This document shows positions 36,587 through 38,177 of a stretch of 64,000 nt of DNA, piece by piece; position 1 is the stretch's first letter, and each line of letters begins with the position of its first letter. The position numbers and the translations under genes are program-made. The notes under the pieces are model-generated. The model worked only from the letters and a program-made list of their open reading frames with translations. It did not search any database and was not told the DNA's origin. The DNA comes from Escherichia coli (GTDB lineage Bacteria > Pseudomonadota > Gammaproteobacteria > Enterobacterales > Enterobacteriaceae), in assembly GCF_017348835.2 (NCBI RefSeq), contig NZ_CP071375.1. One strand, given 5' to 3'.

Positions 36587-37906
36587 GTGAATATGGCAGT
36601 AAAGATTTCAGGTGTACTGAAAGACGGCACAGGAAAACCGGTAGAGAACTGTACCATTCAACTGAAAGCCAGACGGACCAGCAGCACGGTGGTGGTGAAC
36701 ACGGTGGCCTCTGAAAATCCGGATGAAGCCGGGCGTTACAGCATGGATGTTGAGTACGGTCAGTACAGCGTCATTCTGTTGGTGGAAGGATTCCCGCCGT
36801 CACATGCCGGGACCATCACCGTGTATGAAGATTCTCAACCGGGGACGCTGAATGATTTTCTCGGTGCCATGTCGGAGGATGACGTCCGGCCGGAGGCACT
36901 GCGCCGTTTTGAACTGATGGTGGAAGAGGTGGCGCGTCACGCTGAGGAGGCGAAGAAGAATGCCGGAGAGGCGGAGACGTCAGCGAGGAATGCCGGCATA
37001 TCAGCCAGTCAGGCAGAAGAGAGCGCTGCAAATGCTGACACTTCAGCAGGGGAGGCATCGGAGTCAGCCCGGCAGGCGGCAGAAAGTGCAGCCTCAGCAA
37101 AGCAGTCAGAGGATGCGTCCTCGTCCTCGGCTTCTGCGGCCGCTCAAAAAGCCAGTGAGTCATCACAAAGTGCAGCAGAAGCTGAATTGTCAAGAAAGAC
37201 GGCAGAAAGTGCAGCCGGTAATGCAGCCAGGGATGCAACGACCGCAACAGAAAAAGCCCGGGAGTCAGCAGAAAGCGCACAGTCAGCGGAACAAAGCAGG
37301 ATAGCGGCGGAAGAAGCCGTAAACCGAATCCCCACAGTGGTGGGGCCACCCGGGCCAAAGGGAGAACCGGGGCCCGCGGGTCCTCAGGGGCCGAAGGGAG
37401 ATAAAGGAGAGCGTGGCGACACCGGTCCTGTCGGGGCAACCGGTGAACGGGGACCGGCAGGTGATGCTGGTCCGGCAGGCCCGCAGGGGCCGAAAGGCGA
37501 CAGGGGAGAGCGGGGAGAGACCGGTCTGACGGGAAATGCAGGTCCACAGGGTCCAAAGGGAGATACCGGTGCGGCAGGCCCGGCAGGCCCACAGGGACCG
37601 AAAGGAGAAACAGGTGCGGCTGGCCCGGTGGGGGCAACCGGACCTCAGGGACCGAAGGGCGACCCGGGGGAGACACAAATCCGTTTTCGTCTGGGGCCGG
37701 CGAGCATTATTGAGACAAACAGCCATGGCTGGTTCCCGGATACAGATGGTGCGCTCATCACCGGACTGACCTTTCTTGACCCCAAAGATGCCACACGGGT
37801 TCAGGGTTTTTTTCAGCATTTGCAGGTCAGGTTTGGTGACGGGCCGTGGCAGGATGTTAAGGGGCTGGATGAAGTGGGCAGTGATACAGGCAGAACAGGA
37901 GAATGA
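36587..37906 (+). CDS. Side tail fiber Stf-like protein with collagen-like Gly-X-Y repeats
   Basis: 439 aa. N-terminus [27 protein letters not shown] is near-identical to lambda Stf. About 36 GXY triplets lie at 37330-37670. Confidence 0.75.
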
Positions 37907-37907
37907 C

Positions 37908-38177
37908 ATGAACATACTAAAAAAACTTATGCAGCGTCTGTGTGGTTGCGGAAAGCATGATGGCCGTGAACACGTGCAGTCGCTTACAGCACAACTGCGA
38001 CTGGGGCCGGCAGACATCCTGGAGTCCGATGAGAATGGTATTATTCCGGAGCAGGACAGGGTAATCACACAGGTGGTGATACTGGATGCAGATAAAAAGC
38101 AGATACAGTGTGTGGTAAGACCGCTGCAAATCCTGCGTGCTGACGGGAGGTGGGAAAATATTGGCGGGATGAAGTAA
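37908..38177 (+). CDS. Small protein (89 aa) homologous to the Stf C-terminal ~60 aa
   Basis: RBS aggaga. Shares an LGPA.I.E motif with the Stf C-terminus. Followed by an intrinsic terminator (ccggagtctggctccgg + T-run). Confidence 0.45.
   Translation: MNILKKLMQRLCGCGKHDGREHVQSLTAQLRLGPADILESDENGIIPEQDRVITQVVILDADKKQIQCVVRPLQILRADGRWENIGGMK

Follow-up and report, generated by a model that had tools for sequence, protein, structure and literature searches.

A window of 64,000 nucleotides of Escherichia coli DNA (contig NZ_CP071375.1, assembly GCF_017348835.2) holds the tail end of a lambdoid prophage, in which the side tail fiber gene (stf) is followed, one nucleotide after its TGA, by the ATG of a gene of 89 codons whose product resembles the C-terminal domain of the fiber itself. 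Why should a phage keep a free-standing second copy of its own fiber tip? A sequence-only reading of positions 36,587 to 38,177 had suggested an exchangeable receptor-binding tip or a remnant of fiber-module shuffling. Our analysis favors another answer, to which we give a probability of about 0.4: the small protein may be a dispensable accessory protein associated with the fiber tip and carried in low copy on the distal knob. The two genes together are the standard distal side-fiber module of lambdoid phages of the enterohemorrhagic E. coli type and of Shiga toxin (Stx) phages. Phages that carry fibers of this type disseminate the genes for Shiga toxin and type III effectors among E. coli.

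The resemblance between the fiber C-terminus and the small protein is real homology, far beyond chance. When the last 78 fiber residues were compared with the small protein by BLASTP, 22 of 62 residues were identical (35%, with 61% positives and E 1e-13), a significant alignment of the kind on which the sequence-only reading had staked its claim. Both proteins match PF06820 (Phage_fiber_C, hereafter PfC) with E values near 1e-36; for the small protein, the match (E 1.1e-36; 125.5 bits, the cut-off being 25) spans profile positions 1-64 of 64, and it also matches phrog_576 over its full length (E 1.6e-59). These profiles place it in both families. PF06820 was its sole Pfam match, with no other at E<=0.1 and none in NCBIfam at E<=0.01, in agreement with the earlier view that the next open reading frame (ORF) is not a classical Tfa chaperone. 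In RefSeq, the gene is named “phage tail fiber C-terminal domain-containing protein.” At the nucleotide level, identity between the two PfC coding segments is 53%, and the longest stretch that they have in common is 11 nt.

The N-terminal extension of the small protein is predicted to begin with a helix (residues 3-11), after which comes a conserved Cys-Gly-Cys-Gly-Lys-His; residues 10-24 are predicted to be disordered. The structure predicted for the monomer had a mean confidence score (pLDDT) of 59. A lipoprotein or secreted protein, as the LCGC motif might indicate, was considered and rejected, given that K5, K6 and R10 precede the cysteine and no signal peptide was found. The top 9-residue Kyte-Doolittle mean is 0.63, with no hydrophobic stretch. 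The length of 89 amino acids (aa) read earlier is correct; the start codon lies at 37908 and not at 37909.

The fiber that precedes it is EPclA, which has already been characterized biochemically and is not new. All the parts of this architecture are present in the window: the PfN domain, a coil segment (PCoil) of 117 residues whose composition (32% Ala, 21% Ser, 14% Glu) agrees with the ~116-residue Ala/Ser-rich segment of EPclA, a single uninterrupted 111-aa collagen domain (Col), and PfC, with 76 residues after the collagen run. The primers of Ghosh et al. for EPclA match exactly at 36593 and 37877, and those for PfC at 37679 and 37853. The protein matches phrog_366 (tail fiber protein, E 2e-152), and its residues 1-93 match the N-terminal chain of Ur-lambda Stf (9e7m_Ta, E 2e-51), the sole non-collagen match when the PDB was searched with the fiber; no PDB relative of PfC was found by sequence. 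Pfam and residue composition agree with the short Stf-like fiber described from the letters alone, with its conserved N-terminus, coil, collagen and small C-terminal knob. Two details of that description changed: the collagen run holds exactly 37 G-X-Y triplets rather than about 36, and the earlier GTG start at 36587 adds two residues, the ATG at 36593 being the one used by RefSeq and by Ghosh et al., which gives 437 aa. ECs2717, the EPclA of the O157:H7 Sakai prophage Sp14, has the same 437 aa, the same PfN-PCoil-Col(111 aa)-PfC order and the exact primer sites. No difference of substance was seen, and what the window carries is a further allele, in a non-O157 background.

EPclA is a trimeric dumbbell that forms a stable trimer when expressed alone in E. 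coli (Ghosh et al. 2012, PMC3368898). Its collagen segment is a true triple helix by circular dichroism (CD), with a melting temperature of 42°C, and refolds within minutes after melting; its Ala/Ser-rich segment is a trimeric coiled coil by CD and multi-angle laser light scattering; and the isolated PfC trimerizes and nucleates the refolding of the collagen helix (PMC3368898). Because the window fiber is nearly identical to the protein studied, down to the primer sites, it is probably a trimeric dumbbell with a collagen triple helix too. The collagen-coding segment holds internal DNA repeats D1-D3, and long antisense ORFs run across its repeats (36816-37676, minus strand, 286 aa; 37283-38191, minus strand, 302 aa). 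These look like by-products of G+C-rich G-X-Y codon periodicity; the equivalent antisense ORF in the phi24B GenBank record is annotated as hypothetical protein vb_24B_37c and is probably spurious.

Is the small gene maintained as a gene? Conservation was followed in the 80 best-matching IMG/VR loci, in 78 of which the gene was located, giving 79 copies with that of the window. The ratios of nonsynonymous to synonymous polymorphism (pN/pS) come from Nei-Gojobori counts over distinct sequences, with similar pS (~0.10-0.13), and are descriptive values rather than a formal test, the loci being related and not independent. The small gene has 89 codons in 79/79 copies, and only two of 79 loci depart from the gap of 1 nt between the fiber stop and its start. 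The AGGAG before it is kept in 76/77 loci and the full context AACAGGAGAATGAC-ATG in 71/77. Its pN/pS is 0.125 (0.097 within the PfC part, 0.31 across the N-terminal 27 codons), against 0.30 for the fiber's own PfC; purifying selection is stronger on the small gene than on the fiber PfC. Upstream of the ATG, the small-gene frame is open for 46 codons in most loci and for 10-16 codons in 15/77, and a frameshift fusion of the two genes is therefore not under constraint. The small gene initiates translation separately, from its own Shine-Dalgarno sequence, and is a selected, expressed protein gene rather than a spare DNA cassette.

Genetic evidence on the same gene has been published. The small gene is ORF68 (89 aa) of the Stx2 phage Sp5 and is non-essential (Mondal et al. 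2016, PMC5155283): Sp5 without ORF68 is viable and was not among the mutants with fewer plaques or lysogens, unlike Sp5 without the fiber gene, which gave no plaques or lysogens (PMC5155283). The authors found no frameshift signal, and had already suggested that ORF68 is a reservoir of fiber variation (PMC5155283). The feature, the homology and the reservoir interpretation are all on record, and the gene is already annotated; it is not treated in Matusiak 2025. Sp5 ORF68, “gp59” of phi24B and the gene of 89 aa, left without a name, that follows stf in the tail DNA of phage 434 (OM418627) are one and the same gene, with PF06820. Since recombinant EPclA trimerizes and folds without the small protein, and the ORF68 deletion of Sp5 is viable, the small protein is not an obligatory chaperone.

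Evidence from virions comes from a phi24B preprint. Its supplement on the proteomics of purified virions lists the peptides VITQVVILDADKK and ADGTWENIGGMK as identified (10.64898/2026.04.10.717836). Both map to the small-gene reading frame and not to the fiber; beside these two, a further peptide of the small protein is LGPADILESDENGIIPEQDR. In the same table, the two identified peptides are labeled “gp59_start” (a 135-aa extended ORF) or hypothetical “Fusion_6159,” the search database of the authors having included hypothetical gp61-gp59 frameshift fusions (10.64898/2026.04.10.717836).

The distribution of the two genes shows how closely they keep together. The small protein was found in 296 phage records, with an amino-acid identity of 92-100% in nearly all and 88% at the lowest, and the fiber-type PfC likewise in 296, with near-identical organism counts. 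Carriers of the small protein include long-tailed Stx1/Stx2 phages, the short-tailed phages 933W, VT2-Sakai and phi24B, and the phage 434 tail region; the “Lambda h434 imm21” record labels the gene, from its position, a tail fiber assembly chaperone. The locus was matched in 4820 of 5426 complete E. coli genomes, with a coverage of at least 80% in 692, and the fiber/small-gene pair is commonplace, occurring in most E. coli genomes. Homology to the phi24B record HM208303 (locus L083, 2451-3327) amounts to a block of 879 nt at 93.9% identity, with no further long phi24B match within positions 35800-39000 of the window. As the homology is confined to this block, the pair is one mobile module, made of Col, PfC, small gene and terminator, and it has been grafted onto different fibers, those of long-tailed (EPclA) and short-tailed (EPclB) phages. 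The 296 records on either side, the shared 879-nt block and the terminator-like hairpins that bracket both genes argue for a partnership between the small protein and the fiber.

A search of 5.8 billion proteins gave 175 significant matches to the small protein, the best 120 of which are described here. Both PfC types are limited, among the matches listed, to Escherichia and one decayed Citrobacter rodentium remnant, and they fall into two tight clusters that share ~35% identity, without any intermediates between them. Neither these best 120 of 175, the longest of which is 131 aa, nor a search of representatives (1.84 billion), whose matches were nearly all Escherichia fragments and deletion chimeras, contained a full-length fiber ending in the small-ORF PfC. 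The sole “swapped tip” among the matches listed is P0060 (95 aa, E. coli, four member sequences), where a collagen repeat (…GERGPA) runs in frame into the small-ORF PfC (…DILESDENG…) through a Gly-Pro-Ala microhomology common to both. Its sibling chimeras fuse fragments of J, Lom or CII to the same small ORF, and we therefore take P0060 to be a deletion product of prophage decay.

The pair is at its most divergent in a prophage remnant of C. rodentium and in related loci (L084-L086, 2494-3237). A 161-aa fiber stub, in which a PfN fragment is fused to PfC and the collagen is missing, precedes a small protein shortened to 78 aa and a truncated NleG. There, fiber and small gene decay together. 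The C. rodentium copy (P0072) was considered as a clue to function and rejected, being a decayed remnant with a truncated fiber. The PfC profile also matches repeats weakly in three long proteins that are otherwise unrelated, P0234 (565 aa), P0254 (938 aa) and P0230 (993 aa). P0234 has four tandem “…VVVL.ADE…G.L.VR.ADG.W..IPA.KG” units beside collagen repeats, P0254 has collagen-linked “IQWR.G.G.W..L..L” repeats and CarboxypepD_reg repeats occur in P0230. Beta-hairpin modules flanking collagen segments may form a wider class to which the C-terminal half of PfC belongs.

In the model that we favor, the first gene supplies three EPclA chains held together by PfN, the Ala/Ser-rich coiled coil, the 37-triplet collagen helix and the PfC knob, the last of which, as experiments on EPclA show, trimerizes unaided and nucleates the collagen helix. 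The second, a late gene, supplies a separately translated, ancient PfC paralog with a 27-residue N-terminal extension, which, judging from its 35% identity to a trimerizing domain, would form a beta-rich trimer of the PfC type. We infer that a few copies of it would sit in the virion on the distal knob, where they would serve as an accessory tip or cap and influence adsorption, host range or stability. The protein is dispensable for plaques on rough K-12. By its position, it replaces partners of the Tfa/gp38 type, yet is unrelated to them. A sharper version, that the paralog is a true virion protein whose trimer is docked on the PfC knob and possibly locked by the Cys-Gly-Cys after release, is doubtful. 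If it holds, the receptor-binding tip would be a two-protein assembly of a domain and its own free-standing duplicate, which would identify the adhesin of these lateral fibers and would be a fiber/partner solution unlike Tfa or gp38. A small partner of the knob that is conserved, under selection and, it seems, present in particles gives host-range work on Stx and effector phages an inexpensive and specific lead.

Several points weigh against this model. The virion evidence consists of two peptides with a count-column value of 3, against ~180 for the top fiber peptides, and the main text of the preprint is silent on the small protein (10.64898/2026.04.10.717836); the small-protein peptides could be carry-over. 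The phi24B cryo-electron microscopy in the same preprint does not resolve the fiber tip, that is, the C-terminal knob, and its authors argue that the BamA binder is probably not the PfC knob (10.64898/2026.04.10.717836). The pN/pS sample, being made of the 80 closest IMG/VR loci, is one of related sequences.

Could the small protein instead act before assembly is complete and be absent from the virion? As a non-structural helper, it would template or register the three fiber C-termini in the cytoplasm and raise the yield or speed of trimerization, a functional Tfa analog born by duplication of the domain that it assists. Its place is that of tfa in lambda-type tail operons (whence the “tail fiber assembly chaperone” of one record), it is translationally coupled to the fiber and co-occurs strictly with fibers that end in PfC, and its low peptide counts in virions, together with the constraint on the gene, would fit such a role. 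Yet EPclA makes a stable trimer in E. coli without it and the collagen helix refolds within minutes, Sp5 loses neither plaques nor lysogens with ORF68, Pfam and NCBIfam show no likeness to any chaperone family, and two of its peptides are listed for purified particles. We regard a helper of this kind as unlikely, although not to be neglected. The fact that the gene is the last before the nleG/espW cargo and is non-essential for phage growth would also suit a role apart from the virion, such as lysogenic conversion, exclusion or defense at the border of the effector (moron) region. The protein, however, has no signal peptide or hydrophobic segment and no PADLOC match; its gene lies inside the terminator-bounded fiber unit, with the homology between prophages ending after it and not before it, and travels with the fiber tip into podoviruses that have other cargo, all of which makes a role of that sort very improbable.

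The explanations that treat the second PfC as part of the fiber in one form or another are improbable as well. The cassette idea, proposed by Mondal et al. (PMC5155283) and close to the exchangeable tip or shuffling remnant of the sequence-only reading, holds that a stored PfC replaces the fiber C-terminus by recombination, or is left over from such an event. The two segments are indeed homologous and adjacent, and P0060 joins a collagen repeat to the small-ORF PfC at G-P-A. With 53% nucleotide identity and no shared run beyond 11 nt, though, homologous exchange between them is implausible; P0060 groups with the J, Lom and CII deletion chimeras, pointing to prophage decay; and the two clades, ~35% identical, have neither intermediates nor, among the matches listed, any fiber with a small-type tip. 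A gene that keeps its own AGGAG and ATG, an invariant 89 codons and a purifying selection at the protein level exceeding that on the fiber PfC (0.125 against 0.30) does not behave as a remnant, whereas a real remnant of it, at 38951-39121, is degenerate and broken. We consider the cassette improbable, in either form. Programmed frameshifting, by which some fiber chains would carry the second PfC fused in cis, could draw on the 46 open codons upstream of the ATG in most loci, on the extended ORF annotated in the phi24B record and on the “Fusion_6159” database entries of the supplement, with which the two peptides are compatible. It is the hardest of all to credit: Mondal et al. found no signal (PMC5155283), the upstream frame is not conserved (10-16 codons in 15/77 loci), a fusion would disrupt the fiber's own PfC, no junction peptide was found in the available portion of the phi24B supplement, and the conserved Shine-Dalgarno sequence and ATG account for expression more simply. 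The accessory tip protein remains the likeliest reading.

How does such a protein compare with known fiber partners? Lambda Stf/Tfa and T4 gp37/gp38 also pair a fiber with a small downstream partner, and the window has the same operon order as lambda, J, lom, stf and small gene. In stf-tfa pairs, the partner gene travels with the fiber tip. By position and by co-inheritance with the fiber's distal end, the small gene resembles a tfa; by family membership and, from the literature, by any requirement for folding it does not. Unlike Tfa and gp38, to which it has no sequence likeness, the small protein is a paralog of the fiber's own tip, and EPclA folds without a partner. Relative to lambda Stf, the distal two-thirds of the window fiber are replaced by coiled coil, collagen and PfC, whereas the N-terminus is homologous to Ur-lambda Stf. 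In Sp5, 933W and phi24B, the small gene follows the EPclB lateral fiber of a short-tailed phage, whereas that of the window follows the EPclA of a long-tailed lambdoid prophage.

C-terminal trimerization modules are familiar from the T4 fibritin foldon, collagen NC1/C-propeptides, the Scl2 V domain, and the intramolecular chaperones of T5 pb1 and endosialidase. The fiber PfC resembles these modules in being a small terminal domain that trimerizes autonomously and nucleates a triple helix; neither a sequence relation to them nor a confident fold relationship was found. To our knowledge, no free-standing second gene copy of the trimerization module exists in the foldon, NC1/C-propeptide, Scl2, T5 pb1 or endosialidase systems, and a free-standing duplicate of a fiber's own trimerization knob is an uncommon arrangement.

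Table 1. Features of the fiber locus and its borders, in window coordinates
Feature	Position	Strand	Remarks
Host-specificity protein J	32360-35836		Upstream of the fiber gene
Ail/Lom outer-membrane protein (lom)	35869-36528		PF06316, E 1e-49
Terminator-like hairpin and T-run between lom and the fiber gene	36555-36576	+	Upstream boundary of the two-gene unit
Side tail fiber gene, EPclA architecture, 437 aa and stop	36593-37906	+	RefSeq CDS has the same limits
PfN domain, residues 1-133, tail attachment	36593-36991	+	PF08400 phage_tail_N, E 3e-69 (3.3e-69), full profile
PCoil, Ala/Ser/Glu-rich segment before the collagen	36992-37342	+	Residue composition
Collagen domain, residues 251-361, 111 aa, 37 uninterrupted G-X-Y triplets	37343-37675	+	PF01391
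Mobile module: last collagen domain, PfC, small gene, terminator	37357-38235	+	Shared with the phi24B lateral fiber
Fiber PfC, residues 363-426, distal trimerization knob	37679-37870	+	PF06820 Phage_fiber_C, E 1.3e-36, full profile
Shine-Dalgarno AGGAG, 6 nt before the small-gene ATG, within the fiber-gene end	37897-37901	+	
Small gene, stand-alone PfC paralog, 89 aa and stop	37908-38177	+	
N-terminal extension, residues 1-27, peculiar to the small protein	37908-37988	+	
PfC of the small protein, residues 28-89	37989-38174	+	PF06820; predicted all-beta
Perfect 13-bp hairpin with T-run, terminator-like end of the fiber unit	38190-38220	+	

Terminator-like hairpins flank the fiber and small gene on both sides (Table 1). 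The one upstream has a stem of 8 pairs, 7 of which are G-C, and is followed by TTTTTTGTGGG. Between lom and this hairpin, ~40 nt 5' of the fiber start, the motif TGTTATGAC was seen at 36541-36553, which is the putative promoter that Ghosh et al. considered in choosing ECs2717 (PMC3368898); a scan with the sigma-70 consensus gave no promoter-like site in 35800-38400. On the other side, homology between prophages (siphoviral loci) stops right after the downstream hairpin, at ~38222-38248, and the effector cargo varies beyond that point.

The next genes 3' of the pair encode type III effectors (NleG family and espW). A 1901-nt query from the window matched a chromosomal prophage of the pig E. coli strain PE164 with 100% identity; in PE164, the prophage adjoins potB/potA. 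Four NleG-family genes (38291-38866, 39151-39738 and 39806-40441 on the plus strand, 41701-42351 on the minus strand) and espW form the cargo region. The family is DUF1076, similar to U-box E3 ligases; the Pfam check was made on the first nleG, which matches PF06416 (E 2.5e-45), and the remaining names are those given by RefSeq in the identical strain. The espW gene (40569-41626, minus strand) is broken near 41100 into two overlapping ORFs of 175 and 192 aa, at a homopolymer that is T7 in the window and T8 in PE164, the rest being identical across 1.2 kb. The split espW is a frameshifted pseudogene, or else the product of a sequencing error.

A partial and decayed copy of the small gene's last ~100 nt and of its terminator lies at 38951-39121 on the plus strand, in the interval from the first nleG to the second; it is ~89-90% identical to 38080-38253 and carries an in-frame TGA and a 7-nt deletion. 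Taken together with the repeat labeled D1 at 38765-38880 and 39637-39752, this copy indicates a tandem unit of ~870 nt (small-gene 3' end, terminator and nleG), and duplication anchored on the 3' segment of the small gene seems to have enlarged the NleG array.

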